The position numbers were made by a program, and so were the translations under genes. From positions 1-57,741 of the forward strand of contig CAZVAN010000001.1 of NCBI GenBank assembly GCA_964625245.1: a stretch of DNA of 57,741 nucleotides. Direction: 5' to 3'. The notes below the pieces were generated by a model. The model was not told the origin of the DNA, did not search any database, and was given only the letters and a program-made list of their open reading frames with translations. Shown in pieces: positions 33,779 through 54,807 of this stretch (position 1 is the stretch's first letter; each line of letters begins with the position of its first letter). The stretch comes from an uncultured Candidatus Saccharibacteria bacterium. GTDB lineage: Bacteria; Patescibacteriota; Saccharimonadia; Saccharimonadales; UBA10212.

Positions 33779-36721
33779 TTAGGGCAATCTAGAATCGTCG
33801 AATTCGTTAACATAGGGATTTGTACATGTAAGGAAGAACCCTGGACTCCATGCCCCTACCCACCCAGTACCACTCCCCCATGAACCACTCAAGCCAGTTC
33901 GGAAATTAGAACCATATTGGGTATCCACGTGACAGCTTGTCGAACCAGAATCATCAACACCGCCGCCGGAAACAGATATAGAATAGCTTCCATCTCCACC
34001 ACACACTATCCATCGGTGGATGCCATCTGCACAGGGACCGGGGTTATAGGTAGCGCTGTTTCTGCAATACCATAAGTTATAATATCCTGTGCTTGAAGGA
34101 CATTGATTGGGTCCTTCATCCCAAATTGCTCCTCTATTGAAGGAGTTTTCCCGAATGGGTGGATGTATGGTGAAACATTGACTGGCGCCTGCGAGGAAAC
34201 CCCACGGATCAGCGCCGGAAGAAAACTGTACGCAGTAATTACCTACTCCTAAACCAACCGACCCACTGCTGCCTACCCAGCCTCCTGAACCAATTGACCC
34301 ACAATTAACCCCCGAGCAGTCGTGAAGGAGGTAGTAACCTCTGCCGGAGTTAGCGGGTGGACAAGAACCAGACCAACTAAAGCCACCTGATCCGTTACGG
34401 TTGTCATACGCAGATACGTTTGCGCTACAAGATGCATTGCCATTTTGTCCTGGGGCGTAGGGGGTAGCACACGCCTGATTACTGGCCAAAGCCCCCCAAG
34501 GTGTAAGGCTATCCGTTAAGGTCAAGCAGAACTGGCTGGTTCTAAGTCCAGGAGTTGTACCACTTCCGGTTCGGCTCGTAGAACTGAAGCCACCATCGGT
34601 ACTGCTTGTAACGCTGTAGGTACCAAGATTAACGTTACCAAGAGCTGGACAAGCACCGGACCAGGAGTAATTAACAGCAGCATCCTGATTGTCACTAGCG
34701 CTTACGCTAGCAGTGCAAGCAGGAGGCAGGATGGGACGAGGCCCTCCTCTGCTAAAGACAATTGTTTGTGGTCCCGAAGAGCGGCCTATTGGATCAAAAC
34801 ATTCTACTGTGAACGTTTTGGTTGAATCATCTTGAGGACCAATGCTCATGGTTTGATTCTGAGTAGCTATTGGAGCGCCGCTGGGGTTATTGTAGCTGGT
34901 AGTTGAGGTCCAGTTGCCGGTTAGGTCGCAGCGGCTGGCATTATTAGCCGACCAGCTAACAACATAAGGTGCGTCGGCAGAAATAGATGCCGGGCCGGAT
35001 ATTGAAGCTGCTGGTGTTGGCCAGGCAGTGACAGTTTGAGTACCACCGGCGTTATTGATGGTGGAATAAGGCGTATTACCACCACCTACCCTGCTACAAA
35101 GCATGCTGAAGCTTGTAACGCTTGAGATAGGACCAAAAGTTTGAGGACGACCGGTGCCATTAAGTGCTGGATTTCCAGTAAAGTCCATGACCGTAGTTTT
35201 ATCGGGCGGGCTGGCCCATCCAGGCATACCGCCGCTGGCCGTGCAAGAGGTAGCATCGGCGGTTGTCCATTTAAGGGTGACGTTATTGCCACTATCTATG
35301 TAGGTTGTGCCCTTGTGGGTGGCATCCGGGGTGGATTCGTTATAGTGCTTAGCCGTTCCATTGTTGGCTATAGCCGGGAAGAGAGGGGTCTCGTTGGCTG
35401 GGCCGGTGTTACCAGTAATGGTCAGATCCAGAGATGGAACGGGGTCGGATACGCAACCACTGCCAGCGCAGGCGCCGGCATCGTGACAAACGTTGGGAGG
35501 AGTATCAAAACTGACGTAGCTATAGAAGCTAACAGTCTGGACAACGCGCTTACAGAGCGCGTTGGCCGTACGGACTGATTGTTCTGGAATGGAATCACTA
35601 CTTGAGGAAATATTGGTATCTATGCCGCCACCTGTGGATGACAAGCTGCTGGTGTCTACCCTGGCCTGCAGGCGCTTGGCAACGCCACCTGATTGGGCAG
35701 TGGCGTCAATCACAGCCTGAACATTTATAAACTTAAGGGTTTGCGTCCATATGTCATTGGCCCGTATTTTTACATCAGCCTGGTTATAAATTGGCGTGAC
35801 TTTCATATATACATAATCCAGGGTGTTGGGAGATATTGAAGTGCTAAGGTCTTTAATAATCAGATTACAGGTGTAATCAGACTTGTTATTAGGCACACCG
35901 TTGAAATCAACCACTCCAGACGTAGTCCCAACCGTAGTTGTACAGCTAACCGGCAAAACGCTGCCGTCCGCAAGTGACGCGTAGGACGGGTGCGGTATGG
36001 TCCCGCTACCGCCACTGTTTTGGGGGTATAGAAACAACGTTTTAGAATTAGCCTGGAGATTTGTTAGGTCGCCGGTGGTAGGGATTGGATAAATACTGAC
36101 TCTTAACATTGGTATGAAGTTGTTGGCAGAGGAAGTCCAGCTAGTGATGTCAGTAAAGCTAGGGCTGTTGGGCGGATAGCCGGTGACGCTGGGGTTGCTA
36201 GGTTGCCAGGAGAGCATGAGTTTATCAAAAGAACCGCTGAAGGCCGAGGTAGTAACTTTCACCACCTGCGACTTATTAGAACTAATCTGCTGATAAGCCA
36301 AATCTGTTGGAGTAGGATCAAGTATTAGACAGGTGTAGTGAGTCGAGGCCGGGTTATCTTTAGCCAAGTTTGAGTCGTTATAAAATGGACCGGGTGTTTG
36401 GGCGTTGCCTATAAGGGTACTGGCGCCGTTACAGTTTGCAGAGCTGGCATACGGATGTAACAGCGCTCCGGTTGCCGGATCTTTTTGTCTTAAATAGCCC
36501 GCCACGTCATTAATGGCTGATTGGGTGGCATAAGTAGCCGCAGCACTAAATTGGCGATTGGTGGCATTGCTCAATGTGCGGCTCATTAGACGGGCGAAGC
36601 CAATACTTATAAGTGTTACCACTATAACAAGAATGGATACAACAACTATTGACGCCATACCCTCCTGAGACTTGCGGTGCATATGCCCAATTTTACTACG
36701 CTTGAACTTAAAATACACCAC
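33779..36721 (-). CDS. Large PilX-like pilus-associated protein / putative tip adhesin
   Basis: 980-aa ORF. N-terminus QEGMASIVVVSILVIVVTLISIGFARLM resembles the PilX N-terminal helix. The remainder is Ser/Thr/Gly/Cys-rich with repeated C..SA.DN......SWSG.CP modules. It is the last gene of the pilin block. Confidence 0.55.
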   Translation of the reverse strand: MVYFKFKRSKIGHMHRKSQEGMASIVVVSILVIVVTLISIGFARLMSRTLSNATNRQFSAAATYATQSAINDVAGYLRQKDPATGALLHPYASSANCNGASTLIGNAQTPGPFYNDSNLAKDNPASTHYTCLILDPTPTDLAYQQISSNKSQVVKVTTSAFSGSFDKLMLSWQPSNPSVTGYPPNSPSFTDITSWTSSANNFIPMLRVSIYPIPTTGDLTNLQANSKTLFLYPQNSGGSGTIPHPSYASLADGSVLPVSCTTTVGTTSGVVDFNGVPNNKSDYTCNLIIKDLSTSISPNTLDYVYMKVTPIYNQADVKIRANDIWTQTLKFINVQAVIDATAQSGGVAKRLQARVDTSSLSSTGGGIDTNISSSSDSIPEQSVRTANALCKRVVQTVSFYSYVSFDTPPNVCHDAGACAGSGCVSDPVPSLDLTITGNTGPANETPLFPAIANNGTAKHYNESTPDATHKGTTYIDSGNNVTLKWTTADATSCTASGGMPGWASPPDKTTVMDFTGNPALNGTGRPQTFGPISSVTSFSMLCSRVGGGNTPYSTINNAGGTQTVTAWPTPAASISGPASISADAPYVVSWSANNASRCDLTGNWTSTTSYNNPSGAPIATQNQTMSIGPQDDSTKTFTVECFDPIGRSSGPQTIVFSRGGPRPILPPACTASVSASDNQDAAVNYSWSGACPALGNVNLGTYSVTSSTDGGFSSTSRTGSGTTPGLRTSQFCLTLTDSLTPWGALASNQACATPYAPGQNGNASCSANVSAYDNRNGSGGFSWSGSCPPANSGRGYYLLHDCSGVNCGSIGSGGWVGSSGSVGLGVGNYCVQFSSGADPWGFLAGASQCFTIHPPIRENSFNRGAIWDEGPNQCPSSTGYYNLWYCRNSATYNPGPCADGIHRWIVCGGDGSYSISVSGGGVDDSGSTSCHVDTQYGSNFRTGLSGSWGSGTGWVGAWSPGFFLTCTNPYVNEFDDSRLP

Positions 36722-37461
36722 TAGTGTAATCCTCTGAAGACAGCAGTGTTGATTTGACTGACAGCACAGAATTCACCGCCCTTGGTGATTTTGCAAACAG
36801 GTGCCGTGGGGTTTGTCAGATCCATAAGATCATCATCGCCGTAGGCTACCACTATATTTACGTTGTAGATGTTCGGATTTTGGGTATTTGGGTTGGTGAT
36901 ACTTATATTGGATAACCTCATCTTCTCACCTAGCAACTCCGTAGGGTTATTCAACCTAAGGCTAGGCGGAGTACAAGCACCCAGGGGCACTGTGTCCGTG
37001 CATGGCGTGGCACAGGCCGAACTACCGGGCAGTACATCTTTGAGTACCCCAAAATTGCCTCCGGAGCCATTATATGGATGATTGGGCGCCGAATGATTTG
37101 GGGTTGCGCTAAGTCCTATTTCATAACCAAGATTATAGGTATAACGAGCATTGCCGATGCAGAAATAGCTATAGCCGCTAGCGCTATCGGTTTGCGGCGG
37201 TGAAACATTAGCCGCAGTCTGGAAATTACCGTCTATATCCTGAAAGATGTGAGTGGCAATTTCTTGGGTTTGAGCCAAGGAGACACCCTTATAGAAGATA
37301 TGGCCAATTTGTAAGAAGCCAGCCAGAGCAACCAGCAATATGATTGAGAAAACGGAGGTAGCAATTAAAAGCTCAACAATAGTAAACCCGCTAGGGTTCA
37401 TGCGAGACCTTGATAGGCTGAACTTGTGCCCAAAAACCCTTTTCATCTTAGCTATAATCAT
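36721..37461 (-). CDS. Minor type IV pilin (prepilin-type N-terminal cleavage/methylation domain)
   Basis: MNPSG|FTIVELLIATSVFSIILL has Glu at +5. The internal Met at 37401 would give a canonical 5-aa leader. The stop overlaps the downstream start. Confidence 0.72.
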   Translation of the reverse strand: MIIAKMKRVFGHKFSLSRSRMNPSGFTIVELLIATSVFSIILLVALAGFLQIGHIFYKGVSLAQTQEIATHIFQDIDGNFQTAANVSPPQTDSASGYSYFCIGNARYTYNLGYEIGLSATPNHSAPNHPYNGSGGNFGVLKDVLPGSSACATPCTDTVPLGACTPPSLRLNNPTELLGEKMRLSNISITNPNTQNPNIYNVNIVVAYGDDDLMDLTNPTAPVCKITKGGEFCAVSQINTAVFRGLH

Positions 37462-37492
37462 AAGCTATTTAAGACTGCTTTTCCAGAGGTAT

Positions 37493-38722
37493 TTAGTAGT
37501 GCTGTTTCGCGCCTTCCCTACACGTAGGCTGCCACTCAGACGGAAGCTGCAGACAGTAACTGTCGACCTTCTGGGGGTTAGGCGTGGGAGTTTGGATCCA
37601 GGCGTATTGCCCAATACTGCTATAGCAATCTTTTTGAAAGGTGGTACCCACTAGACCGCAAAATTTAGCAGACCGAGTAAAATCAAGGCCATCAAGCGCC
37701 AAAATGTTAAAAACTGAACCTATGACACAGTTACTGGTGTATGGTTTAGGGACTTCCTGACATAGTAACCAGGCGTTAGATTCAAGATCGCCGGCATCCT
37801 GGCCCTTAAGTAGTAAAGGCTGCCAAGCCTCCCCAGAAGCCGACAACCCTAAGCTCTCTACACAAACTCCTGCATTCGGCCCGGCTGCTACGCAAGCCTG
37901 AGCCGCCTTACGAAAGTCATTATTATATAAATTAAATAAGTAACCTTCTTGATTCATATAGCACTGGGTTACGTACTTTTCGGCAACGTTGTCGCACGGC
38001 GCCATGGGGTCAGTCTTAGAAAAGGTGCCATTGTCGGTTATTCTACTAACATAACCCCATTCGTTCTCCATAAATGCTCCTTGCCAGCAGCCAGTTTGAG
38101 CTATCTGGTTGCCAAATGCATCGCATTGGTCAAGAGCCGCGGTCAAATTGTAATCTACGTCTTCCATTATGGCGTGGCCGATGCCATGGTAGCAGAAATG
38201 TTTCTGGTTATATGTGTAGCTAGAGCTTGCAAGGATAGGCCGGCATAGCTCGTCAGCTAAACTGCTGGCCGAGCTGCCTTTAATTTGGTCCTCGGCCTCT
38301 TCTATATAGCCGTGCATACAGCCGTTATTAAAGTCGCTTCCACACCTTAAAAAGGCCTTGGTGTTCAATCCATTTGATAAAAATATTTGTTTTCCTACAT
38401 GGTGTGCTCGCAAATGATTATCGCCGGGTAAGTAATTGGCAATGTCGTGGACATAGTAATTTAAACTTGCCAGAGCTGCCTCCGGCCCCACATTTGCCGT
38501 TATGCTTTGCAGACCCTGGTCTATACATGCCTCCGTATAACACTGAGCCAGCCACTTGGTAGTTAGGGTCTTGATGAATCTATCGTCAGGCGAAGCCTGC
38601 GCGGCCGGATGACGAGCGTCAGCTAAATTAATGGCAAGGATGGCAACGACTATAGCCATTAAACCAAACAGGAACCTGCTGCGCTGCTTGGCTCTTAGCT
38701 TCAGCGACCCCAGTCCGATCAT
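37493..38722 (-). CDS. Secreted Cys-rich repeat protein, unknown function
   Basis: 409-aa ORF with a signal/anchor helix and then a recurring C-x-x-G-containing helical motif (CMHGYIE, CYHGIGHA, CWQGAFME, CVESLGL, CVIGSVF, CYSSIGQ). Confidence 0.5.
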   Translation of the reverse strand: MIGLGSLKLRAKQRSRFLFGLMAIVVAILAINLADARHPAAQASPDDRFIKTLTTKWLAQCYTEACIDQGLQSITANVGPEAALASLNYYVHDIANYLPGDNHLRAHHVGKQIFLSNGLNTKAFLRCGSDFNNGCMHGYIEEAEDQIKGSSASSLADELCRPILASSSYTYNQKHFCYHGIGHAIMEDVDYNLTAALDQCDAFGNQIAQTGCWQGAFMENEWGYVSRITDNGTFSKTDPMAPCDNVAEKYVTQCYMNQEGYLFNLYNNDFRKAAQACVAAGPNAGVCVESLGLSASGEAWQPLLLKGQDAGDLESNAWLLCQEVPKPYTSNCVIGSVFNILALDGLDFTRSAKFCGLVGTTFQKDCYSSIGQYAWIQTPTPNPQKVDSYCLQLPSEWQPTCREGAKQHY

Positions 38723-39579
38723 GTGTATAGTTTTAAGCTGTCAAGCACCGTCTGCCAGGTGGTGATGTTTTGAGTCCAATTATCCTCTGTTACCATCAGT
38801 GAAAAGTAGTAGATAGTGCCAGGACCAAGCACATAAACAAGCTTGCCTTTCATGGGCTTTATTGTCGGGTCGGCGTTAGTTATGTCCAGGTCAAAACTCC
38901 AGGCATTCTTCTTTATATTGGCATTGGTAAATTTATGAGGTGCACTGAGCGTTGCATCGTAGCCCGGGTAGCTGTCAAAAACTTGTTTTTTAATAGCGTC
39001 TATGTAGTCCGCGCTGTAAGAGTTTTTGACGGCCCCGGACATGAAATCGTTAATGCCCTTTATATACTCCGCATCGTTAGTGTGGCTGTCTTTATAAGAA
39101 AATACGAATATGTAGCTGAGCGGATAATTGCGCGAGCCAAAATGTGCAAAAGACTCAGTACTGTAGTTTTGGTCACTTTTTTTAGCTGTGGCGGTAAACT
39201 CCGACGGTTTTGAAAATAACATACCTCCGGCCTGCACGGTCGAAAATTCATCGCCGTTAGCATTTTGATAATTGTATTTAGTCACACTGCTCCCGCCGAC
39301 ATTGATCAATCCTGTAGTCAAAGTTAAGTAGCCTATAGTGCCGAGGATGGACGCTACTAATAATGTGATGATTAGAGGAACTTTCCTTGGCCTTTTGCTT
39401 TTTATACCAACAACAAGAGCTACTATTAATCCCAGTGGTGGGATTAATAGTGCAACAATAATGGCTAATATCGGAGATCTTTTGAGGTTCCTTATTGAAG
39501 AGCTTTTGGACGATGTGCTCGCACTAGTCACCGCCGGCTTGGCGGAATTGTTATTTTGGGGATTGGACGTTGGGGTCAT
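38719..39579 (-). CDS. Membrane protein, unknown function
   Basis: 286-aa ORF with a Ser/Thr-rich N-terminus, two TM helices and an extracytoplasmic domain. It overlaps the downstream gene by 4 nt. Confidence 0.5.
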   Translation of the reverse strand: MTPTSNPQNNNSAKPAVTSASTSSKSSSIRNLKRSPILAIIVALLIPPLGLIVALVVGIKSKRPRKVPLIITLLVASILGTIGYLTLTTGLINVGGSSVTKYNYQNANGDEFSTVQAGGMLFSKPSEFTATAKKSDQNYSTESFAHFGSRNYPLSYIFVFSYKDSHTNDAEYIKGINDFMSGAVKNSYSADYIDAIKKQVFDSYPGYDATLSAPHKFTNANIKKNAWSFDLDITNADPTIKPMKGKLVYVLGPGTIYYFSLMVTEDNWTQNITTWQTVLDSLKLYT

Positions 39580-39636
39580 TTTTCTTCCTTTTCTTAAGTA
39601 TAAAGTTGCTCATTTATAAGCACAAGCATATTTCAT

Positions 39637-41355
39637 CTATAGACAAACCCGAGCTATATGCAGTAATGGCAGCGATCTTGGTAGCCCATAAATTGAAGCG
39701 AAAGTTGGATAGGTAATCTTGCCCGGAGTGATGTTGATTCCGCAAGGACATCCAGGCACACAGTAACCGCTCTGGTAGGAACCGGTGTAGGTGGTGGTGT
39801 AGGTGCCGACATAACCGCCGGTATAACCCCCGGTATAACCCCCGGTATAACCCCCGGTATAACTGCCGGTGTAGGAGCCGGTGTAACCGCCGGTGTAGGA
39901 GCCGGTGTAACTACCAGTGTAGGAGCCGGTGTAGGAAGCTGGTGGCGGAGGCCCTGTGCTAAAGGCAGTTCCATTAGAGCAGACTGTACCCCCCACATTT
40001 GTGGCGCAAAGTTTAAAGTAGTAGGTTACGCTGGAGCCGAGACTAACACCGGCGCTTACCGTACCACCTGCTGTAGGATTACAATCAATTGAACTACCAC
40101 TTGAGGGGACGGTATTGCCATCGTTATAAGACGAGGTGCCATACCAGAATTTACAATAGCTCAAAGGGTAACCGTTAGGATTGGCTGAGCCATTGAGGGT
40201 GGCTGAATTATAAGTAACTGATGATGCCGAACCGGCGGATACTGATGGTAACGACAGCGTGGTAAAAGTAGCGTCGGCTCCACAAGTGGTTCCGCCAACA
40301 TTGTTGGCGCATATTCGGAAATGATAGACAATTCCCATACTAAGGCTGCCGATACTACTACTTGAAGCTACAGGGGCCAGTCCTGAGCCTGCAGAAGAGG
40401 TAGAACTAGTAGAACCGTAGGATGTAGAAGTGCCATACTGGAAGTAGTAGGTGCTAGCCAGTCCGCTAGGGTTGACGGTTCCATTAAGTGTTGCTGAGTT
40501 AATAGTTACGGAGGTAGCTGAGCCAGTAGCAACAACTGGAGCCGGAGCCGCTCCAACGGTAACGTGGGCGACGGCGGGGGTTGTAACAGTACTATCAATT
40601 CCTACGCACGTTAGGGTAAAATCGGTCGTTGAGGTTAGCGGACCAATGTTGCCAGGTGTACCGCCAATCGGGTTGCTAAGAGGTTTAGAGCCGCTCCAAG
40701 GACCGGCCGTTGCCGAGCAGCTGGTGGCGTATACTGTGCTCCAGCTAAGGTTAGATGAACCGTTGTAGTTAATCGATGCTGGCGAGGCTATGAAATTGTT
40801 TATCTGTGGGGGTGGTGGTGGAGTGGTGGTGCCAGCGTTGGGTGAGGCCGTTGAGTTTGGAGTAGAAACATAGCTGTCATTAGCCTTGTAGTAAACGACT
40901 GTTTGCTCTGGGTGATTATCGGCTGAGGTCCAGCCGACCACAATTTTGAAGGTTTTACATGGAGTGGCGGGAGTTGCGCTAGTACAGTCGGTGCCGTAGG
41001 TATCGGTAACCGAGAAGTTACCATTAGCGCTATTATCGATTATTGAGGCCGGGCAGCTTCCAACCGCTACTGCAAGAGTGCCATCAGACTTCAAGCAAAA
41101 GTTACCGGTTTGTGCTGTGAGATTGCTTATGGTCGAGTGATTGTCGGCATTTTTAATCAGCTCTAGCTGTTGTTGAGCCACTGAGACAGCTTGGTCACGG
41201 TATTGAGAGTCTACGCTGGAATGAAGGCTACGGGTAGAAGTTGCATAGGCAACGGTTATAACTATGGTGAGGACGGCCATGCTTATCATAACCTCAACTA
41301 TAGTGTCGCCTAGTTGACCGAGGTTACGTTTTCTAAAAAGGTTAAGGCTTTTCAT
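39637..41355 (-). CDS. Giant pilin-like adhesin (paralog 1) with FN3-like modules and a (G/S)YTG repeat tail
   Basis: 572-aa ORF. The prepilin-like N-terminus LGQLG|DTIVEVMISMAVLTIV has Glu at +5 but Asp at +1. It carries two ...SATLNG..NPNG....F.YGT...YG... modules and a C-terminal ~14x (G/S)YTG tract. Confidence 0.7.
   Translation of the reverse strand: MKSLNLFRKRNLGQLGDTIVEVMISMAVLTIVITVAYATSTRSLHSSVDSQYRDQAVSVAQQQLELIKNADNHSTISNLTAQTGNFCLKSDGTLAVAVGSCPASIIDNSANGNFSVTDTYGTDCTSATPATPCKTFKIVVGWTSADNHPEQTVVYYKANDSYVSTPNSTASPNAGTTTPPPPPQINNFIASPASINYNGSSNLSWSTVYATSCSATAGPWSGSKPLSNPIGGTPGNIGPLTSTTDFTLTCVGIDSTVTTPAVAHVTVGAAPAPVVATGSATSVTINSATLNGTVNPSGLASTYYFQYGTSTSYGSTSSTSSAGSGLAPVASSSSIGSLSMGIVYHFRICANNVGGTTCGADATFTTLSLPSVSAGSASSVTYNSATLNGSANPNGYPLSYCKFWYGTSSYNDGNTVPSSGSSIDCNPTAGGTVSAGVSLGSSVTYYFKLCATNVGGTVCSNGTAFSTGPPPPASYTGSYTGSYTGSYTGGYTGSYTGSYTGGYTGGYTGGYTGGYVGTYTTTYTGSYQSGYCVPGCPCGINITPGKITYPTFASIYGLPRSLPLLHIARVCL
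39775..39937 (-). repeat. 12-nt tandem repeat tract encoding (G/S)YTG
   Basis: Plus strand shows iterated CCGGTGTA/CCGGTATA + 4 nt units (for example ggtataacccccggtataacccccggtataaccccc). It also produces an artefactual PTPA/VIPG shadow ORF (39654-39998). Confidence 0.85.
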
Positions 41356-41603
41356 TGGTCTATTTTAATACTATTAATAAACGTAGTCCACTGTTCGACA
41401 TTATTGTCCCAGGGGCCATAATTTTTCTGACTTGCTCATTAATTATCTGCATTCCAGTTGCGCCTTGTTTGGTTAAAGATTTCTAATAATTCCCGTGCCA
41501 TATTTAAATCCTTACGCTTAATAGTAAACAAAATGTGAATTTATTGCCATAAGTTCTCATTTTGCCTTCATGCTATGATTAACATGATAAAGAATGAGCT
41601 TAT

Positions 41604-42155
41604 ATGACACTAGGTAGACCATTCTCAGGTTATAGAGCGCTGGCCGGGTTAATTATTGCAATATTGTTGTTGGTTGGCGCAGGATATTTGCTTTTTAATC
41701 ACACCGACAAAAAACTCACACCCGCCAACCCTCAAAATACCGCTGTAACAAGTATTAACAAGCTTGTTGTTAAAGATTTGGGCGTCGAGATTACTCTATC
41801 CAACCCGCTTATTGGCACAACTACCGATACCACTACCCCGCCTAGCTCAACTAAATCCACACCTCTCCCAATTACAAATTTTAGACTGATTCAATATTCG
41901 TATCTGGTTCAAAAATGCTTGGACGCTAAGTACAATTTCAGGACTCCTTATGCTAGCTTTTCAAAAATATCTGGCAAAGCAGCGACGGGTGATGCGCAGC
42001 TAATGAAACAGTTCAACGGATTTTATATCGAGCGGATTGGCGCTGGTTTAAAGTTAACTTGCAAAGACCAAACTACTCAGGCATCTTTGGATGACCTAAA
42101 TATTAAATATGACCAAGCGCTTAAAGATGCTTTTGCCAGCGCCCAGCCGATTTAA
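41604..42155 (+). CDS. Membrane-anchored hypothetical protein on the opposite strand, splitting the pilin block
   Basis: 183-aa ORF with an N-terminal TM helix. It is convergent with the upstream pilin-like gene (13-nt gap). Confidence 0.5.
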   Translation: MTLGRPFSGYRALAGLIIAILLLVGAGYLLFNHTDKKLTPANPQNTAVTSINKLVVKDLGVEITLSNPLIGTTTDTTTPPSSTKSTPLPITNFRLIQYSYLVQKCLDAKYNFRTPYASFSKISGKAATGDAQLMKQFNGFYIERIGAGLKLTCKDQTTQASLDDLNIKYDQALKDAFASAQPI

Positions 42156-44690: not shown

Positions 44691-44725
44691 AAACTAAATT
44701 ATAGCATAAGCCCTAAGAAGTAATA

Positions 44726-46555: not shown

Positions 46556-46558
46556 CAT
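46073..46558 (-). CDS. pilA: Major type IV pilin, copy 1
   Basis: 161-aa ORF MSKQLNKQNNQG|FTIIEVLIVLAIAGLIMLVVF with Glu at +5. It has an AAAGGGGG RBS and its own promoter. Confidence 0.85.
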   Translation of the reverse strand: MSKQLNKQNNQGFTIIEVLIVLAIAGLIMLVVFLAVPALQRNSRNTQRKSDSAHLAGLYSEWKANRGGTPLTNVNDSTGAAGPDLTNENFAIFTKPTGGANTVTTPYVAPASPAADTFYVFSKATCNGPSSVTAGGSLRSIIVVYYLEPVSATTLQCVAAS

Positions 46559-46670: not shown

Positions 46671-47885
46671 TTACCCGCCTCCCAGGTTTTTGCCAGCCAA
46701 GCCATAGATAGGTAACAATACAGCGGCTACGATTATTAAGGCTATGACACCGACTACAATCATAAGCACCGGCTCGATAATAGTATTTATGGCTTTTATC
46801 TGGCTGTCCACCTCTTTTTCATAGTATTCGGCCAAGCGAACAAGCATTTTCTCTAGAGCCCCAGATTGCTCGCCAATGCTTATCATATTAGGAACTAGGT
46901 CTAGAAAATGGGGATCACTTTCAAGAGCGGAAGAAAGCGTTTTGCCGCCCTTTACCTCTTCTACGGCTTTATGAATAGAATTGGATATTAGACTGTTGCC
47001 GACGGCCTCAGCCGTGGTATTGAGCATTTTAATCATTGGTACTCCTGCCCCAACCAATGTGCTGGCGGTGCGAGCAAAACGGGCCATATATAGTTTCATA
47101 AACAGCGGCCCAATTGGCCAGATGGTCATTTTTAGCCGATCAATGAAAATTACACCACTGGAGCTTTTTATAAACCGCCGCGCAAAGAAAGCAGCTGCTC
47201 CCAGGGCAATGACCATCAACCACCAAAAGTGAGTAAAGAATTTAGAGAAATCCAGAAGTAGAGTGGTTATAAATGGCAATTGAGTTCCAGGTAATGACTT
47301 ATAGAGACTACTCACCTGGGGTAGAACAGTTGTAGTCATGAAAATAAGGATTCCAAAAAGTACAACCAGAACTATTGCCGGGTAAATCATGGCGCCTCTG
47401 ACTTTGCTTATTACCTCGGCATCCTTCTCCTGTTGAGTCGACAGACGGTCTAGCGACACATCCAACGAGCCGGAGGCCTCACCGGCTGTTACCAAACTTA
47501 TGTAAACATTGTTAAAGACAGTTGGGTATTTGGCCATGGCCGACGCTAGGCTGGAGCCAGCCTCTACGTCTGTCATAATCTTGGAAATTATTTCTTTAAG
47601 GACTTTTTGTTTGGTTTGTTTTTCGACGGTACTTAGACTTTGAAGCATTGGCAGGCCGGCATTAATTAGAGTTGAAAGCTGCCTGGAAAAAATAATTTTT
47701 TGCTTTGTTGGCACCCGACTACGAAACCCAATAGCAGATTTTTCAGATTTAAGGGTAATGTCTAGAGGAGACAACCCCCGGTCAATCAAAAGTTTGGCCG
47801 CCGATTTTTCGTTTTCAGCTTCAATTTCGGCTTTTATTTTTTGGCCGGAGGCCGGATTCAGGGCGGTATAGGCATAGGTAAGCAT
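46671..47885 (-). CDS. pilC: Type IV pilus platform protein PilC (GspF family)
   Basis: 404-aa ORF with two GspF repeats and three TM segments. It sits next to pilT and pilB. Confidence 0.9.
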   Translation of the reverse strand: MLTYAYTALNPASGQKIKAEIEAENEKSAAKLLIDRGLSPLDITLKSEKSAIGFRSRVPTKQKIIFSRQLSTLINAGLPMLQSLSTVEKQTKQKVLKEIISKIMTDVEAGSSLASAMAKYPTVFNNVYISLVTAGEASGSLDVSLDRLSTQQEKDAEVISKVRGAMIYPAIVLVVLFGILIFMTTTVLPQVSSLYKSLPGTQLPFITTLLLDFSKFFTHFWWLMVIALGAAAFFARRFIKSSSGVIFIDRLKMTIWPIGPLFMKLYMARFARTASTLVGAGVPMIKMLNTTAEAVGNSLISNSIHKAVEEVKGGKTLSSALESDPHFLDLVPNMISIGEQSGALEKMLVRLAEYYEKEVDSQIKAINTIIEPVLMIVVGVIALIIVAAVLLPIYGLAGKNLGGG

Positions 47886-47889
47886 GCGC

Positions 47890-48954
47890 CTAGCCCCTCA
47901 TCAATCTGTCTAGTTCTTCAACGTCTACCGCATAATTTCTAGCTTCGTCGTAGCTGATTTTCCCGGAATGCACCAGGCCTATCAGAGTATGATCCATGCT
48001 TTGCATGCCATGCTCAACGCCTGTTTGGATAACCGCCTCCAGTTGATAGTTTTTACCTTCGCGGATGATATTACGCACGGCTGGGGTGGCGATTAGGATT
48101 TCAGCTGCCGGTACACGACCACCGCCAAGAGCCGGAATTAGTCGCTGCGAGCAGACAGCCATCAATATATTGCCGAGTTGGGCCCGGACCTGGGGTTGCT
48201 GGTGGGGTGGAAAAACATCAATCATGCGGTCAATACTTTGGCTGGCGCTGTTGGTGTGCAGAGTGGCAAAAACCAGATGTCCGGTTTCGGCGATTGTAAT
48301 AGCCGCCGCTATGGTCTCAAGATCGCGCATTTCACCAATCAGAACTACATCCGGGTCCTGGCGCAGAGCCGAACGCAAAGCCGAACTAAAACTATAAGTA
48401 TCGTAGTGGACTTCCCGCTGTACAACCACCGAGTGTTTAGATTTATGGGTATACTCAATTGGATCTTCGATGGTAATAATATGCACGGCTTTTTCGGTAT
48501 TTATCTTATCTACCATGGCAGCTAGGGTCGAGCTTTTACCGGAACCGGTCGGCCCAGTAATAAGAACCAAGCCGCGAGGGTATTCGGCGAACTTATTCAG
48601 GATTTGTGGCAGACCAAGGTTCTCTATAGACTTGATTTCATTTGATATCAGTCGCATGGCCGCCGCTAGGTTACCCCGCTCGTGGAAAGCGTTAACCCTG
48701 AAACGACCCAGATCGCCAAAGGCAAAGCTAAAATCAAATTCCTTGTCACGCAGTAATATCTGTTTTTGGTCCTCATCAAGCAAACCGAAGACCAAACCTT
48801 CAACTGTTTGTTCGCTCAGAGCATCCTGTGCTGGTATAGGCAACAATGCGCCATCAACCCTTATAACAGGCGGTAAGCCAACCTCCAAATGAAGGTCGGA
48901 TGCCTTGCGTTTGACAACTTCTTCCAGTAAGAATTCTATTTTTGGTGGTTGCAC
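47890..48954 (-). CDS. pilT: Twitching-motility retraction ATPase PilT
   Basis: 354-aa ORF with Walker A GPTGSGKSST, Asp box, Walker B VLIGEMRD, His box ATLHTNSA and the AIRNIIREGK-type motif (AVRNIIREGK). Confidence 0.93.
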   Translation of the reverse strand: MQPPKIEFLLEEVVKRKASDLHLEVGLPPVIRVDGALLPIPAQDALSEQTVEGLVFGLLDEDQKQILLRDKEFDFSFAFGDLGRFRVNAFHERGNLAAAMRLISNEIKSIENLGLPQILNKFAEYPRGLVLITGPTGSGKSSTLAAMVDKINTEKAVHIITIEDPIEYTHKSKHSVVVQREVHYDTYSFSSALRSALRQDPDVVLIGEMRDLETIAAAITIAETGHLVFATLHTNSASQSIDRMIDVFPPHQQPQVRAQLGNILMAVCSQRLIPALGGGRVPAAEILIATPAVRNIIREGKNYQLEAVIQTGVEHGMQSMDHTLIGLVHSGKISYDEARNYAVDVEELDRLMRG

Positions 48955-48966
48955 TTTTTAACTCCC

Positions 48967-50772
48967 CTAACTATCCGCTGAAGCTACACGGTTTACTTCT
49001 AGCAGAGTGGTCTTGCCAGCCAAAGCCTTTAGGTAGCCGTCCTGGCGCATAGTCACCATCCCCTGTGCTTGGGCTTGCCTTTGGATAGCCGAGCTGGTGG
49101 CGTGTTTGATGATTAGGTCCTGTATTGGTTCTGTGATTTCAAAGACCTCGTAAAGCCCTACTCGACCCACATAGCCGGCGGGATTATCGGGTGTTTCTCT
49201 ACCCTTAAACAAAGTATAAGCGTTTTCGTTCCCAAGTGGCAAGGCAGAATAACCGAGGTCTTTGGACACCTTATCTACATCTGCACTGGTTTTGGGTAGT
49301 AGATTTCCAAGAACTTTATGAATGTCGTCGGTTTCAACATTGTTTGAAGCGTAGGTTTCTTTATCATCCACTATTTTTCTGACCAAACGCTGGCCAATTA
49401 CGGTGTGGACGGTGCTGGCAATCAAAAACGGTTCAATACCCATATCAAGCAAACGGGGCAAAATTCCAGCGGCGCTGTTGGTGTGCAGAGTGGCAAAAAC
49501 CAGATGTCCGGTTAAAGCCGCCTGAACTGCCAGGCTGGCAGTTTCTTTGTCGCGAATTTCGCCGACCATTACTACGTCTGGATCCTGGCGCAGAATTGAC
49601 CTGAGTCCAGTCGCAAAAGTTAGTCCGACGTCCGGATTTACTTGGATTTGGTTGACCCCGTCAATCTTATACTCTACGGGGTCTTCCAAGGTGACTATAT
49701 TAACTGAATCGTTTTTTATTTCCTGAATCATGGCATACATCGAGGTTGACTTACCCGAGCCAGTCGGGCCTGAAGTGAGTATCATGCCGTGCGGCAACCT
49801 AAGACTCTCACGTATGAGTCTCAGCGCCCGGCCGGTATAACCCATATCTTCTAGGTTAAAGCTGCTACCGCTCTTATCCAAAAGACGCATGACAACTTGC
49901 TCGCCCCAGACTACCGGACTTATGGCTACACGGATGTCTATAGCGTTCTCTTCGATCTTGATGGTAAACTGTCCGTCCTGTGGAATTCTATGCTCGTCAA
50001 TCTTTAAATTGGATAAAATTTTTATTCGACTCACTAGGGCTGGCTCGGCACTTTTGGGCAATTTCATAATCTCTCTGAGCACCCCGTCAACCCTAACTCT
50101 TATCTTGAGCATGTTCTCCAGAGGCTCAATATGGATGTCGCTGGAACGGGTCCTGGCGGCATAGTTCATTATGGCGCTTAAGGCTTTCGCTATCGGGGAG
50201 TCCTGAACTATAGTCTGGACTTTTTGGTTAGCATCAGCCGATTTAGCCTGCCCCGCGGTGTCACCCTTCTTGTCCGCCAACAACTCGTCAACCATTTGGG
50301 GTTTGGTGAGTATATCGGTTATGTTGCGGGTCTGGTCATACTTTTCCAGTATGTGCTTTATACCGGACTCGCTGGCGGCGTAGACTTTCAGGGGCCGGCT
50401 TATCTTATTACTTAGAAAATCTACAGCTTGAAGGTTATCAGCATCGAGCATGGCTACCACTAGTCGCTTGTCCATCTCACCAATCGGCACAGCCATGTAG
50501 TGCTCGGCGACATCCTTATCGAGCAAATCCAATATTTTGGGGTCAATGTTGGCGGTTGTAAGGTTTACATAGGGAACATTGTTAGCAATAGCTAAGGCTT
50601 TTGTTAGCTGCTCGTCACTGATATGTCCATCATTAAGTAGAACACTAAAAAAAGGCTGCTTACTACTTTTAGCCTGGTTTTTAAGCAAGTTAAGCTTGTC
50701 TTTATCTAGTAGGCCCTCTTGAAGCAGTACATCCTCTGTTTTTACCTGAATCTGAGGCGACAGGACATTCAT
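48967..50772 (-). CDS. pilB: Type IV pilus assembly ATPase PilB (GspE family)
   Basis: 601-aa ORF with an N-terminal GspE_N domain, Walker A GPTGSGKSTS, Walker B VMVGEIRD and His box ATLHTNSA. Confidence 0.93.
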   Translation of the reverse strand: MNVLSPQIQVKTEDVLLQEGLLDKDKLNLLKNQAKSSKQPFFSVLLNDGHISDEQLTKALAIANNVPYVNLTTANIDPKILDLLDKDVAEHYMAVPIGEMDKRLVVAMLDADNLQAVDFLSNKISRPLKVYAASESGIKHILEKYDQTRNITDILTKPQMVDELLADKKGDTAGQAKSADANQKVQTIVQDSPIAKALSAIMNYAARTRSSDIHIEPLENMLKIRVRVDGVLREIMKLPKSAEPALVSRIKILSNLKIDEHRIPQDGQFTIKIEENAIDIRVAISPVVWGEQVVMRLLDKSGSSFNLEDMGYTGRALRLIRESLRLPHGMILTSGPTGSGKSTSMYAMIQEIKNDSVNIVTLEDPVEYKIDGVNQIQVNPDVGLTFATGLRSILRQDPDVVMVGEIRDKETASLAVQAALTGHLVFATLHTNSAAGILPRLLDMGIEPFLIASTVHTVIGQRLVRKIVDDKETYASNNVETDDIHKVLGNLLPKTSADVDKVSKDLGYSALPLGNENAYTLFKGRETPDNPAGYVGRVGLYEVFEITEPIQDLIIKHATSSAIQRQAQAQGMVTMRQDGYLKALAGKTTLLEVNRVASADS

Positions 50773-50792
50773 GGTGCTTTAAATGTCTCCTT

Positions 50793-51059
50793 TTATTGTG
50801 GGCTGCCGTTAAATGGCGTTTGGTTTTGGGTGTTGCCGAGTTGCAGCGGTTGGGCTGGATCCAGTGCGCCCTTGTTGAAAATAGTGTTGTAGTTAGAGTC
50901 GTTTTTGATATCCGGGAAAGTCGCGGATATACTGTTGGCCGTATGTACAGTCAGGCTGTGGTTCACCGGTATCCTGAATATCAAACTAGTTAGTATGAAG
51001 GAAAGGACCGCCGTTACCCCGGCAATCATAGCTAAAGTAATTATGTCTTTTCGTTTCAT
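50793..51059 (-). CDS. Small single-pass membrane protein in the pilMNO block
   Basis: 88-aa ORF with one TM helix. Its start overlaps the pilO-like stop by 1 nt. Confidence 0.5.
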   Translation of the reverse strand: MKRKDIITLAMIAGVTAVLSFILTSLIFRIPVNHSLTVHTANSISATFPDIKNDSNYNTIFNKGALDPAQPLQLGNTQNQTPFNGSPQ

Positions 51060-51748
51060 TATTTTATCTCCTTGCCAGTTATGATGACGGTTTTAGGTGG
51101 CTGATAATAGGTTGTAAGATTGAGACTGACTGTTAGGTTTTCCGCATTACCGGTTAGAGTCAGGTGCGTAACGTCCATCGGTCTAATTGAGCGCTGAAAA
51201 TCGGCTATTAATTGGGCTACTGAGTCATATTTACCGGTGCCGCTAAGCGTCAGATCAATCTTAGAAGGCGTAGGATTGGCCGAAGGCTCTGATTTTACAG
51301 TGCTGGAATCATCAGTTCCGCCTATGCTTGGATTGCTTATACCCGCGGAGCTTAGAATTGTGGAGACGCTTGTGAGTAGCGCCGGAAAATCGTAACTGGT
51401 TGGCAAGGCATCCAGGACAATTCGGCCATTGTCGACATCTGGAGATACGGCGTTAGGGCTTGTGTCATTTGTATGATCGATAATATTTTTAGTGGAGCTA
51501 CCAATAAAGACCTCGTTGTACTGAGTGACTAGGTTGTTGGCATTTTTAATGTTAGCGTTCAGTTGGACGACCGAAGCCTGTCTTGCGTTAATAACCCGTC
51601 GCTGATATAGCGCCTGCCCCGCCAGAACTTTTGCGCTAACCAAACAAAATACTGTAGTTACAGTAGCGCCCACTATTATGCCAATAATTTTTTGTTGAGT
51701 CTTATCTATTTGCAAAGACTTGCCGCTAAGTTTGGACTTAATTTTCAC
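51059..51748 (-). CDS. pilO: PilO-like pilus assembly protein
   Basis: 229-aa ORF with one TM helix and then a coiled-coil plus periplasmic-type domain. Called mainly from its position after pilM-pilN. Confidence 0.55.
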   Translation of the reverse strand: MKIKSKLSGKSLQIDKTQQKIIGIIVGATVTTVFCLVSAKVLAGQALYQRRVINARQASVVQLNANIKNANNLVTQYNEVFIGSSTKNIIDHTNDTSPNAVSPDVDNGRIVLDALPTSYDFPALLTSVSTILSSAGISNPSIGGTDDSSTVKSEPSANPTPSKIDLTLSGTGKYDSVAQLIADFQRSIRPMDVTHLTLTGNAENLTVSLNLTTYYQPPKTVIITGKEIK

Positions 51749-52516
51749 CTACCTACCCTCCGTGCTTGTCTGGCTACTATTAAACAATGTACTGGCTGGG
51801 TCGTTTAGTCTAGATGGCGGGTTGGTTTGTTTGACTGATAGATCTAGGGATACAGCTTTGCCTTGAGTGTCAACTAAGTTATTGGCGAATAGCTTAGTGT
51901 CATATTGTAGATTTATAGTATAGCCGGCATTAGTTGGATTAATGCTAAAAGAGCTTTCTACCACCGACGGGAAGGCCGTTTGGCTACAAACTTTCTTATC
52001 ATTATTCCACTGCCCGCTAGCGGACGAACAGCCTTTTTGATCCTTTACATCGGGTATCGCGTAGGTAGTCGTTTTGAGAGTGTCCACAAAAGTGTTAACG
52101 GCTTGCTGAGAGTTGGCCGTACCTGAAATAATCATCGTTGATTGGGTTGTATCAATGTCCAATTTATTGATACTGACGTCAGCCGGTGTTATTTCCGGAA
52201 GATATACGAAAATTTGTGATAGGGCGTGCTTGCTTTGGTGTAGCTGGGATAAAGCTTGAAGTTGACTCTGGACCGTAATTATCTGGTCAATTCCAGGTAT
52301 AGCTTTAAGTTTCTGACTGGCCGCGTCAACTGCCTTACTGGAATTATCCATCTGTCTCTTCTGCACCACATTGACCATTAAAAGCATGGTTAGAAAAATC
52401 GCCAAACTAACCACCCCGGCTAGAAGGGATAGTCGAACTACCGTCTTTTCCAGATGTTTAGTGCGGTTATACTCCAACTTGACGTCGGGCAGCAGATTGA
52501 ACTGTACTTTGCTCAT
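51749..52516 (-). CDS. pilN: PilN-like pilus assembly protein
   Basis: 255-aa ORF. The N-terminal FNLLP motif is followed by one TM helix. It overlaps pilM by 4 nt. Confidence 0.68.
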   Translation of the reverse strand: MSKVQFNLLPDVKLEYNRTKHLEKTVVRLSLLAGVVSLAIFLTMLLMVNVVQKRQMDNSSKAVDAASQKLKAIPGIDQIITVQSQLQALSQLHQSKHALSQIFVYLPEITPADVSINKLDIDTTQSTMIISGTANSQQAVNTFVDTLKTTTYAIPDVKDQKGCSSASGQWNNDKKVCSQTAFPSVVESSFSINPTNAGYTINLQYDTKLFANNLVDTQGKAVSLDLSVKQTNPPSRLNDPASTLFNSSQTSTEGR

Positions 52517-53556
52517 GGGTTTCTCTCCGCTAGTCCTGCTGCGATGGCAAAAGTATTGGATACCGCGTCCAGCTCATTCTGGCGAGCCGGCGGTATGCTA
52601 ATATTGCGCCAAGCGCTACCTATCTCAACGCTAATGCCAAACTTATTTGCCAGATATATTGGAAACTCTGGCAGAACAGACGCTCCACCTGTAACTATAA
52701 TTCGTTCTATCTTGAGGGTCGGATAGCGTCCTTGAAAGAATTTTATGGACTTGTCTATTTCAATAGCCAGACCTTCAATAATACTAATAATGGAGCTATA
52801 TACCTTCCCTTCCAACTTGTCTTTCCCTATACCAAACTTAAAGACGAACTGCCGGGCTTGTTCGCGGTCAATGCCAAGGTGCTGAGCCGTAGCCGTAATA
52901 AGCGCCTGATGCCCAATTGGTATTGATCTTGAAAGGTGAGGGACACTACCAACAGCTATGACAATATCGCTAGCGGCGCTACCTATATCTATAAGGACTT
53001 GCGCCAAGTTATTATCCGCCGGTACTAAAGACCGAGCCATGGCCATGGTGTCGGGTTCAAAAGCAATTACGTTCAGTCCGATAGACTCCAGCATCTCAAG
53101 CCGGCTTTCTACATAACTATTGGCAATCGACGAAAGCAGGACTTCAATTTTTTTGGGATCTTTGGGCGAGTCGCCGATTACCGCCCAGTCAATCTTAGAT
53201 TCGGCCAGAGGTGTAGGTATGTAAGAATCAGCTTGAAAACGGATAGTTTTGGCCAGCTCATTTTCCGGCAGGCGGTCCATGTCTATAACGGTGGTAAAAA
53301 CCCGGCTGGAAGCCAGATTAACAGCTACGTTCCTGGTAGATATACCGCTGCTCTTCAAAAGTTGGCTGATTACAGCCATAACTTTGGCCTGGTCAGCCTT
53401 GGCCTCGCTCAGGGCAACCGTCCCCTCAAACGGCGCATAGCCGTAGCGCGATAACTCCCTCAAGGGACCACTGCCTTTGAGTTCTACAGCCCTAGCAGCT
53501 GTTATACCTAGATCTAAGCCAAAAAAATCAGATTGCCCACTCAGTGTACGGATCAT
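52513..53556 (-). CDS. pilM: Type IV pilus assembly protein PilM (actin-like ATPase fold)
   Basis: 347-aa ORF with FGLDLG at the N-terminus, DIGSAASD, and IIVTGGAS motifs of the FtsA/PilM family. Confidence 0.88.
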   Translation of the reverse strand: MIRTLSGQSDFFGLDLGITAARAVELKGSGPLRELSRYGYAPFEGTVALSEAKADQAKVMAVISQLLKSSGISTRNVAVNLASSRVFTTVIDMDRLPENELAKTIRFQADSYIPTPLAESKIDWAVIGDSPKDPKKIEVLLSSIANSYVESRLEMLESIGLNVIAFEPDTMAMARSLVPADNNLAQVLIDIGSAASDIVIAVGSVPHLSRSIPIGHQALITATAQHLGIDREQARQFVFKFGIGKDKLEGKVYSSIISIIEGLAIEIDKSIKFFQGRYPTLKIERIIVTGGASVLPEFPIYLANKFGISVEIGSAWRNISIPPARQNELDAVSNTFAIAAGLAERNP

Positions 53557-53610
53557 ACTTATTGTTGATTATAGCATGAGCGCTTTACTCGCCCACCCTT
53601 GTTTTTAATT

Positions 53611-54807
53611 TTAAAATACCGGGGGTAGTGAGGTTATGCTATCGACCGGTAGACCAGCGGCCGAATTAGAGCTAGTAGAGCCGCTGAAGAAACTGCCGCC
53701 CATTATTACATCGGGGGTGTAGTTGATAATTTCGGCAACGTTACACGTTGCTGGCGCTGGCGGGGTGCAGCTACCTCCCGGCGCAGTGAAGGTGTTGATT
53801 GAATCTTCGCCGGGGTTAGGAGTTGTTATGTCGCCCTTCACCCGCAAGAAGTTAACCTGTTTGGCAATAAAAGCACCGTTAACCAACAGAGGGTTGGTGC
53901 AGGTCGGCGGATAGAAATAATCTAGCGTGAGCGAATTATTGGGATGGCAAGTCCAAATAGTACCGTCATCAGCATTAATCGTGTTGGCGTCATTAGTCGC
54001 CGGTTCGGCGATATATACACCGTCCAGTTGCGTCACGGCCGGGTCTATGTAAATACTGCCGCTAGCCACCAACGAAAACTTGGGCACATTGTTGGCATTG
54101 TGCGGTGCATAGGTAATGTTACTAGGGATATAAGCATTACCTTTCACAAAAACGGTGATGTGCTTACCAGCGGGAATTGCAATGCCAGCGGGATTAATGA
54201 CTGCATTTGAGCCGCTCGACGGCGTCATTAAATATTGACCGTCAGCATTATTAAGGTCTATAGAGTCACCGTAAGCAGTTATGTTGCAGCAACTTTGGGG
54301 AGAATTTTGCTTTGTGCCAAAATAATCCGGAATACAGTTGCTTTGACGAACATTGCCTTCATATAGCCCTCCCCAGGTATTGCCGCTATGGTTATTAGAA
54401 AAAGCTAGAGCCCAAGGGAATGTAGGAGTGGTTGCGGCCTGGGCGCCAGCACTGTTAAAACCATCGTTTTGTGTGGCGTCTCCATCAATTGAGCCAAGCG
54501 AGAAAGCCGCATATTGAGATGACGCGCCGTTTGTTTGTAGATAACTTACATTGTTGTTAACTCTGGCATAAGTTAAAATTCCGCCATTTCTGATATCAGC
54601 CCCGCCCTGCGGGTAGTTTGAGTCCTGGTAATAACCGGAGGATTGAGCTGGGCAGCTGTTACCGGACTTATACCAACCGCCAGTCATAACATCGCCACCG
54701 TATGTCTTAAAATACGGCTGGTTAGCTGAAACCGTGCCCAAAGAGGCCAGTAATAGCAGTGCACTTACAATAAGCGCAGGTAGTCTTTTAAGGTGTTCTA
54801 CCTTCAT
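53611..54807 (-). CDS. Secreted protein of unknown function at the head of the pilus locus
   Basis: Likely start is MKVEHLK (Met-18 of the listed ORF). Signal peptide ...LLLLASLGTVSANQ. Gly/Asn/Ser-rich mature part; no family recognised. Confidence 0.5.
   Translation of the reverse strand: MKVEHLKRLPALIVSALLLLASLGTVSANQPYFKTYGGDVMTGGWYKSGNSCPAQSSGYYQDSNYPQGGADIRNGGILTYARVNNNVSYLQTNGASSQYAAFSLGSIDGDATQNDGFNSAGAQAATTPTFPWALAFSNNHSGNTWGGLYEGNVRQSNCIPDYFGTKQNSPQSCCNITAYGDSIDLNNADGQYLMTPSSGSNAVINPAGIAIPAGKHITVFVKGNAYIPSNITYAPHNANNVPKFSLVASGSIYIDPAVTQLDGVYIAEPATNDANTINADDGTIWTCHPNNSLTLDYFYPPTCTNPLLVNGAFIAKQVNFLRVKGDITTPNPGEDSINTFTAPGGSCTPPAPATCNVAEIINYTPDVIMGGSFFSGSTSSNSAAGLPVDSITSLPPVF

Follow-up and report, generated by a model that had tools for sequence, protein, structure and literature searches.

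The 57,741-nucleotide stretch of DNA analysed here (the window) carries a locus for a type IV pilus (T4P), which we judge, with good confidence and by its architecture, to be a retractile type IVa-like pilus (T4aP) of Saccharimonadales and the counterpart of the first T4P locus, T4P-1, of Nanosynbacter lyticus TM7x. Saccharibacteria and other members of the candidate phyla radiation spend their lives attached to host bacteria, and among the organelles that serve their attachment and motility, type IV pili have the best support. The window is the entire contig C1 of an uncultured Candidatus Saccharibacteria genome (826,667 bp in 46 contigs, estimated to be 92.6% complete), and the locus spans positions 54807 down to 33779 on the minus strand, apart from the gene p183 on the plus strand. 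The system itself is already known; the locus extends known biology with local elaborations and is not a new system.

The pilus locus and its counterparts

Searches with Pfam and NCBIfam models agreed with the gene list of an initial annotation of this DNA, every gene it named lying on the minus strand where it had been drawn. The model searches it had proposed for PilM/N/O, GspE/F and the N_methyl motif identified the machinery genes, with PilO just below the cut-off. The machinery genes and major pilins are given below, with percentages for identity to relatives.

PilM: 52513-53556, minus; 347-aa actin-like cytoplasmic alignment protein; PF11104 at 1.2e-38; 54-71%
PilN: 51749-52516, minus; 255 aa; PF05137 at 2.3e-6, above cut-off
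PilO-like: 51059-51748, minus; 229 aa; PF04350 at 5.5e-4, 20.5 bits against a 22-bit cut-off
p88: 50793-51059, minus; 88-aa single-pass membrane protein between pilO and pilB
PilB: 48967-50772, minus; 601-aa extension ATPase; T2SSE at 4.5e-121, N-terminal MshEN at 1.3e-13; 68-77%
PilT: 47890-48954, minus; 354-aa retraction ATPase; T2SSE at 2e-50; 77-85%
PilC: 46671-47885, minus; 404-aa platform protein; T2SSF at 3.4e-61, two domains; 51-72%
PilA copy 1: 46073-46558, minus; 161-aa major pilin; N_methyl at 4.2e-8; leader MSKQLNKQNNQG, cleavage, then FTIIE; 30-52% (PilA)
PilA copy 2: 45597-46091, minus; 164 aa; second unit of a 479-bp head-to-tail duplication
PilD: 44726-45529, minus; 267-aa prepilin peptidase and N-methyltransferase; A24_N_bact at 6.1e-28, Peptidase_A24 at 1.1e-9; 46-63%

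The locus opens with p415, followed by PilM, PilN, the PilO-like protein, p88, PilB, PilT, PilC, two PilA copies and PilD; the block after PilD consists of p314, p526, p183 (plus strand), p572, p286, p409, p246 and p980. The closest public relatives are metagenome-assembled genomes of Candidatus Saccharimonadales or Saccharibacteria (PilD identity 48-63%), and we compared the locus with seven loci from a PilD-based scan and ten regions around PilX-like hits in relatives of the same family, some of them in the same genomes. A common order (p415-like, PilMNO, p88, PilB, PilT, PilC, a single PilA, PilD, p314-like, PilV-like, p246-like, PilX-like) recurs in about 15 related Saccharimonadales loci. 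Identity to relatives is highest in the machinery and lowest in the pilins, the minor pilins reaching 28-56%. The PilO-like gene keeps its place after PilN in related loci, and p88, which matched no Pfam or NCBIfam family at E values up to 5, has homologues at the same position in nine of them. The T2SSE model matched four proteins in the genome, three of them PilB-sized, so that the PilT of the locus is the sole PilT-sized one. An orphan third PilB-like T2SSE ATPase (C2:4381-6066, 561 aa, 9e-91) has no neighbouring pilus genes.

The locus brings together PilB, PilC and PilD, PilT, PilM-PilN-PilO (PilO below threshold) and a class III major pilin, the set by which a T4aP is recognised, and PilT, PilM-N-O, PilD and the four-gene minor-pilin set with its Glu5-less end together point to a retractile, monoderm-type T4aP. 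A type II secretion system (T2SS) as the primary identity was rejected, given PilT and PilMNO and the lack of Gsp-specific genes. The initial annotation had called the locus secretin-less, and this was borne out: the secretin model PF00263 had no match in the 826,667 bp of this genome (92.6% complete) and none in a sample of 101 genomes from across the order; six genomes of diderm bacteria, used as controls, were positive. Since 0 of the 101 genomes matched and the controls did, the lack of a secretin characterises the lineage and is not peculiar to the pilus locus. The lack of a PilQ secretin, which is required only in diderm bacteria, fits the monoderm-type T4aP variant. The PilP model PF04351 also found no match, but it was silent in the control genomes as well.

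In TM7x, locus one (TM7x_00415-00475; Grossman et al., ISME J 2025, PMC12206443) is assigned to the thick T4P-1, which is PilT-bearing and essential and drives twitching, and a second machinery without PilT, by recA/recX, produces the thin T4P-2, which has a part in host binding (PMC12206443). According to a 2026 preprint, PilX1, the large minor pilin of T4P-1, binds peptidoglycan and is a generalist motility adhesin, and PilX2 of T4P-2 binds host cell-wall polysaccharide (10.64898/2026.10.06.756255). As in T4P-1, pilMNO, pilB, pilT, pilC, pilD and the major and minor pilins of the window form one locus, which ends in a large PilX-type pilin without a canonical PilD site, holds the sole PilT of the genome and has no secretin. 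As in TM7x, a second machinery lies near recA/recX elsewhere in the genome. This second pilus system is split over two contig ends: on C10 (1-7347) PilB2, PilC2, a T2SSG-type PilA2 and a modular pilin with CarboxypepD_reg, Big_1 and SpaA-like domains lie beside RecA (4.7e-141) and RecX, and on C19 (16176-21338) PilM2, PilN2 and PilO2 are accompanied by three pilins, one of 529 aa and without Glu5; PilT is not among its genes. A Com pilus as the primary identity of the window locus was rejected, recA and recX sitting with this other system. The window locus differs from T4P-1 in its tandemly duplicated major pilin, in its duplicated PilV-like pilin with fibronectin type III (FnIII) and immunoglobulin-like (Ig) modules, in a 980-aa PilX-like protein which has Ig-like arrays and in which the jelly-roll lectin-like domain of PilX1 was not recognised, and in the inserted genes p409 (Cys-rich) and p183 (opposite-strand).

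Modular minor pilins and duplicated pilin genes

The initial annotation had described an unusually large complement of giant pilin-like proteins, with at least five proteins having prepilin-type N-termini (↓ marks the cleavage site).

p314: 43746-44690, minus; minor pilin 1, 314 aa; ...LNLAG↓FTIVE; GspH/ComGD-like N-terminus
p526: 42169-43749, minus; minor pilin 2a, 526 aa; G↓DTIVE; PilV-like module, Ig/FnIII-like modules, Cys-rich end
p572: 39637-41355, minus; minor pilin 2b, 572 aa; G↓DTIVE; helix and head, linker, three sandwiches, repeat tail
p246: 36721-37461, minus; minor pilin 3, 246 aa; ...NPSG↓FTIVE; N_methyl at 7.1e-6, TIGR02532 at 8.4e-5
p980: 33779-36721, minus; PilX-like, 980 aa; ...QEG↓MASIVVV, no Glu at +5; last gene of the block

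The prepilin-type N-terminus held for p314, p526, p572 and p246 (G-1, E+5) but not for p980, which has G-1 and V at +5. The large complement proved overstated, as there are four canonical minor pilins and one paralogue with sizes inside the range of the family; what stands of the giant proteins is that they are modular pilins with a helix, a head, Ig/FnIII modules and variable distal ends, and not that their number or size is unusual. Only p246 matched N_methyl above the cut-off, as it did TIGR02532; the matches of p314 (N_methyl 1.2e-3, GspH 2.3e-5, ComGD 1.6e-3), p526 (N_methyl 5.5e-4, PilV TIGR02523 3.3e-3) and p572 (N_methyl about 1e-3) were all below it. In all relatives an orthologue of p314 lies after pilD and one of p246 before the PilX-like gene. 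As in the FimU/PilV/PilW/PilX and GspH/I/J/K priming complexes, four consecutive minor-pilin genes follow pilD, the first GspH-like at its N-terminus and the last and largest without Glu+5, like GspK and PilX. The window set differs from these complexes in that its subunits are 2-5 times larger, its PilV-like members have an invariant Asp at +1, and its family assignments beyond the N-terminal methylation motif are all below threshold.

The terminal protein p980 belongs to a family of 23 proteins in which G21, A23, S24, I25 and V28 are invariant and Glu is found at +5 in none; it has the N-terminus of a PilX/GspK-type pilin rather than that of a canonical GFxxxE prepilin. It matched neither N_methyl nor PilX_N (PF14341); three of the 23 homologues matched the latter, at best at 2e-4, and two are named PilX by JGI. 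Pfam and NCBIfam gave p980 no credible family, even at E values up to 5, and a profile of the family had no matches among the sequences of the PDB. An AlphaFold 2 (AF2) model built with the 23 homologues (mean predicted local distance difference test score, pLDDT, 66) shows a helix at 24-77, a beta-rich core at 127-356 (pLDDT about 80), a low-confidence linker and outer sandwiches at about 430-545, 555-660 (pLDDT about 88) and 660-720, while the last ~230 residues are poorly modelled, with large stretches of 750-980 below pLDDT 50. With the whole model as query, Foldseek returned only generic tandem Ig/FnIII arrays (the GhpA grappling hook, PTP-delta, SiiE) at low TM scores. Identity to the homologues falls from the N- to the C-terminus, from 68% (residues 21-80) through 49% (81-360) and about 36% (431-660) to about 23%, with gaps, in 661-980. 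The protein has 28 cysteines and its C-terminus is Cys-rich. In relatives the PilX-like pilin measures 390-1059 aa, and other families of the order have only the PilX-like core of ~350-410 aa; since they have the core only, the C-terminal ~590 residues of p980 are a family-level addition. The gene is terminal in most related loci, and in some a p286-like gene follows it.

The AF2 models of p572 and p980 share one build, an N-terminal pilin helix of ~54 residues followed by beta domains. In p572 (38-sequence alignment, mean pLDDT 75) the 54-residue helix at 18-71 is followed by a small beta head (86-156), a poly-proline linker, beta-sandwich domains at 184-267, 274-365 (pLDDT about 97) and 371-466, and a disordered tail (475-572) which holds (G/S)YTG repeats and a Cys-rich end. 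The tail repeats are encoded by a 12-nt (24-nt) tandem repeat at 39763-39933, and as its unit is in frame, slippage would alter the length of the tail. Foldseek matched p572 to tandem FnIII/Ig arrays with probability 1.0 (PTP-delta 2e-10, FnIII 10-12 of fibronectin 3e-9), the profile of its family matched titin FnIII domains at 1e-16, and database homologues of its middle part have Pfam matches of the fn3/PhoD_N type. Full-length relatives found through the pilin module measure 430-614 aa, several being named PilV by JGI and two carrying PA14. Across the related loci the PilV-like pilin ranges from 151 to 673 aa, its bare form being 151-176 aa. The Asp at +1 was invariant (G↓DT[ILV][IV]E) in all 15 PilV-like sequences from the window and 13 related loci, and it is unusual for a PilD substrate. 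In p980, p572 and p526 no lectin-like, jelly-roll or propeller domain was recognised, the end of p980 being modelled with low confidence.

These peculiarities could also be read as those of surface proteins that are no pilus subunits, either anchored in the membrane or secreted, and use a prepilin leader and PilD only for membrane insertion or release, the pilus machine working like the pseudopilus of a T2SS. The atypical Asp at +1 of p526 and p572, the absence of E5 and of an N_methyl match in p980, and mature parts of 500-960 residues, which might fit a thin filament poorly, speak for such a reading. We nevertheless regard it as improbable. The motifs G↓DTI(V/I)E and G↓MASIV are conserved across relatives, each heading a pilin helix of ~54 residues with a head or core; the four-gene order after pilD is that of the canonical minor-pilin set; subunits of the GspK/PilX type normally lack E5; and PilT is present while T2SS-specific genes are absent. 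Nor need size be an obstacle, as Streptococcus sanguinis incorporates modular pilins of comparable size into its pili (PMC8179133). Its PilB and PilC, like the large pilins of the window, combine a class III signal peptide and an N-terminal pilin module with a grafted C-terminal module, and its pilus is likewise a secretin-less T4aP with PilT and two tandem major pilin genes (PMC8179133). The two systems differ in that the window pilins carry FnIII/Ig sandwiches and Cys-rich ends where S. sanguinis has vWA or lectin modules, and the two sets of modules are unrelated in sequence.

Two pilins of the locus are duplicated. Both PilA copies match N_methyl at about 4e-8 and have the class III signal ...NNQG↓FTIIE (G-1, F+1, E+5). 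The duplication occupies 45599-46553 (TRF: period 479, 2.0 copies), and the copies are identical at 473 of 476 nt, all three differences being synonymous. Copy 1 has its own ribosome-binding site, AAGGGGG, and gains a Ser and TAA at the junction, while copy 2 has none of its own, its sole ATG sitting inside the last codons of copy 1. The PilV-like paralogues p526 and p572 are 44% identical over their full length. In a tree of the pilin modules they group together (support 95/97), as do the two copies of another locus (L018); on this grouping the copies either are in-paralogues or undergo homogenisation of their pilin modules. Joining of strain variants in tandem during assembly of the metagenome bin would account for part of this expansion, and the near-identity of the pilA copies, the missing ribosome-binding site of copy 2 and the single pilA in all related loci examined are in keeping with such an artefact. 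We consider it very unlikely, however. The duplication junction gccgctt-cct-aaaacag is absent from both flanks (5' and 3') of a single-copy gene and would therefore not be built from strain variants by a graph assembler, which argues for a genuine pilA duplication; p526 and p572 are too far apart in sequence and differ in module number; and two other genera have the duplicated PilV-like genes with a p183 homologue in between.

The head protein p415, non-pilin genes and surroundings

The genes of the locus which encode neither pilins nor known machinery, and the candidate promoter at its head, are as follows.

Candidate locus promoter: 54816-54843, minus; TTTGCA, 16-nt spacer, TATACT, upstream TG; ends 8 nt before the p415 ATG
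p415: 53611-54807, minus; 398 aa from the ATG at 54807; Sec-type secreted; first gene of the locus
p183: 41604-42155, plus; small protein, anchored or secreted, encoded between p526 and p572
p286: 38719-39579, minus; 286-aa membrane protein with two transmembrane segments and an external domain
p409: 37493-38722, minus; 409-aa Cys-rich (18 Cys) secreted protein

Homologues of p415 lie directly upstream of pilM in related loci. A profile of the family matched 87 of the 101 genomes of the order, and among the matches listed it lay within 2 kb of a PilM match in 70 of 86 genomes. The protein itself had no Pfam match, even at E values up to 5, and the family profile found none among PDB sequences. 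A C-terminal SLPPxF is conserved in the family. Outside the family of the window, the p415 domain makes up the C-terminal ~350 residues of secreted proteins of 630-1630 aa (loci L030-L035 and L039-L042), which end in SLPP[VIT][FL] but for one that ends in GLAPVF. In the clade of the window the PilX-like pilin measures 700-1060 aa, and of the head protein only a constant domain of ~360 aa is left; in other clades the PilX-like pilin is a bare core of ~370 aa and the head protein measures 630-1630 aa. Among 31 genomes, a PilX-like protein of at least 650 aa was paired with a head protein of less than 500 aa in 13 of 13, and one of less than 650 aa with a head protein of at least 500 aa in 16 of 18 (Fisher's test 5e-7, uncorrected for phylogeny). 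This inverse relation of sizes may reflect a single switch. A simple transfer of domains between the head protein and the large pilins found no support, as BLAST showed no similarity of the C-terminal modules of p980, p572 and p526 to the N-terminal modules of large head proteins of other genomes. As a tentative proposal, which we think has the odds against it, the PilX-like cap pilin could require a member of the p415 family as its non-pilin partner, with variable host-facing modules carried by either partner and not by both. If this were true, p415 and the cap pilin would form a two-protein tip complex of a kind undescribed for any type IV pilus, and the inverse size relation is the one lead here towards something undescribed.

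The -10-like box TGTATACT lies upstream of the p415 ATG, and the string TGTATACTGCTTATGTATG of this promoter is conserved in the window and five related loci. A second -10-like box, TGCTATAAT, lies 7 nt upstream of the p314 ATG (about 44698-44706); both are of the extended -10-like form and stand 7-8 nt before their ATGs. A plain TAAAAT -10-like box is found 6 nt before the p572 ATG (41362-41390). These are matches to a consensus pattern only, and a locus-wide scan for promoters and terminators gave counts at chance level; the closeness of the boxes to the ATGs suggests leaderless or very short-leader mRNAs and three transcription units.

The gene on the opposite strand (41604-42155), which had been noted as splitting the block, is real. 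In two other genera, L017/G121 (L017 7867-9238) and L018/G108 (6912-7628), p183 homologues likewise lie between duplicated PilV-like genes, and the gene is absent where the PilV-like pilin is single-copy, a pattern that extends over three genera, one of which has two p183 copies. Homologues of p286 were found in nine related loci, either between the PilV-like gene and p246 or after the PilX-like gene, and it appears to be a conserved accessory gene of the minor-pilin block. Neither of these proteins could be assigned with Pfam and NCBIfam at E values up to 5, p183 having no family match and p286 no credible one; the same held for p409, likewise without a credible match. The p409 family is patchy: 12 of 41 relatives have a member, at places unrelated to the pilus locus, and this genome has a paralogue (C24:1802-2335). 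As a pilus component p409 was rejected, being absent from every related pilus locus; by its distribution we take it to be an insertion and probably not a part of the pilus.

Beyond the PilX-like end of the locus, the region 29660-33681 of the window is GC-rich (0.52-0.54 against ~0.46) and encodes a Xer-type recombinase, a cutinase-family esterase, a PsbP-like protein and a 332-aa protein; genes for the esterase, the PsbP-like protein and the 332-aa protein also adjoin the PilX-like gene in related loci (L006/L025, L017, L019 and L021). The head of the locus is flanked by a RimK-type ATP-grasp ligase and an L,D-transpeptidase with PG_binding_4 (54872-55993 and 56315-57739), and the related loci compared have no homologue of either in their flanks.

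Proposed working of the pilus and its place in Saccharibacteria

On the reading as a retractile T4aP, PilD would cleave the short basic leaders of the major pilin, p314, p526/p572 and p246, and the minor pilins together with the Glu5-less p980 would form a priming complex that remains at the tip of the filament. Beneath this complex PilB would polymerise PilA, working on the PilC platform, which PilM-N-O would hold, and PilT would depolymerise the filament and so cause twitching; a secretin would be needless on account of an envelope without an outer membrane. The conserved pilin module would anchor the enlarged pilins, while their lineage-specific Ig/FnIII modules and Cys-rich ends would project outward as the parts likely to make contact with a surface or cell wall.

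We weighed the suggestion of the initial annotation that the giant minor pilins are host-binding tip adhesins. Their modular, variable distal ends and the analogy with PilX1 favour it, but no binding domain was recognised. By that analogy it is reasonable to suppose an adhesin role for p980, the counterpart of PilX1 by position and a candidate cap or adhesin subunit, and possibly also for p526 and p572. The locus had further been called the main host-interaction organelle, for which we found no support because the genome has a second, T4P-2-like system, the recA/recX-linked pilus matching the host-binding T4P-2 of TM7x. By analogy, the window locus would be the motility pilus and the second system the more host-specific binder.

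Several points weigh against the interpretation as a T4P-1 counterpart with adhesive tip pilins. The assignments of PilO and PilV depend on sub-threshold matches, and with Asp at +1 the processing of p526 and p572 by PilD is assumed. The FnIII/Ig arrays are generic and may be spacers rather than binding modules. Orthology with TM7x is drawn from architecture only, and the jelly-roll lectin-like domain of PilX1 was not recognised in p980, whose last ~230 residues are modelled with low confidence.

The initial annotation had also linked the window to DNA uptake through comM. The gene is indeed present, at 12329-13855, but it lies outside the locus, 20 kb off among unrelated genes. The locus might still be primarily a DNA-uptake (competence) pilus, in which retraction by PilT draws DNA to the cell surface and ComM acts downstream. 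The presence of PilT and of ComM would be expected of such a pilus, and TM7x mutants in T4P-2 keep wild-type competence (PMC12206443), which leaves T4P-1 as the remaining candidate if a pilus is needed at all. We nevertheless find this doubtful: many unrelated genes and tRNAs separate ComM, a cytoplasmic helicase found in many genomes, from the locus; recA and recX adjoin the other pilus system; no linkage of ComEA or ComEC to the locus was seen; and T4P-1 has been assigned experimentally to twitching. DNA uptake may be a role of the pilus, but it would be an additional and not an exclusive one.

Taken as a T4P-1 counterpart, the locus leaves the present picture of Saccharibacteria pili unchanged. 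It is an example of the extent to which a soil or environmental lineage can elaborate the conserved T4P-1 design, here by duplication of the major and PilV-like pilins, by FnIII/Ig modules on its pilins and by a cap pilin of 980 aa. For binding studies akin to those on PilX1 and PilX2 of TM7x, it offers concrete candidates in the C-terminal modules of p980, p572 and p526.

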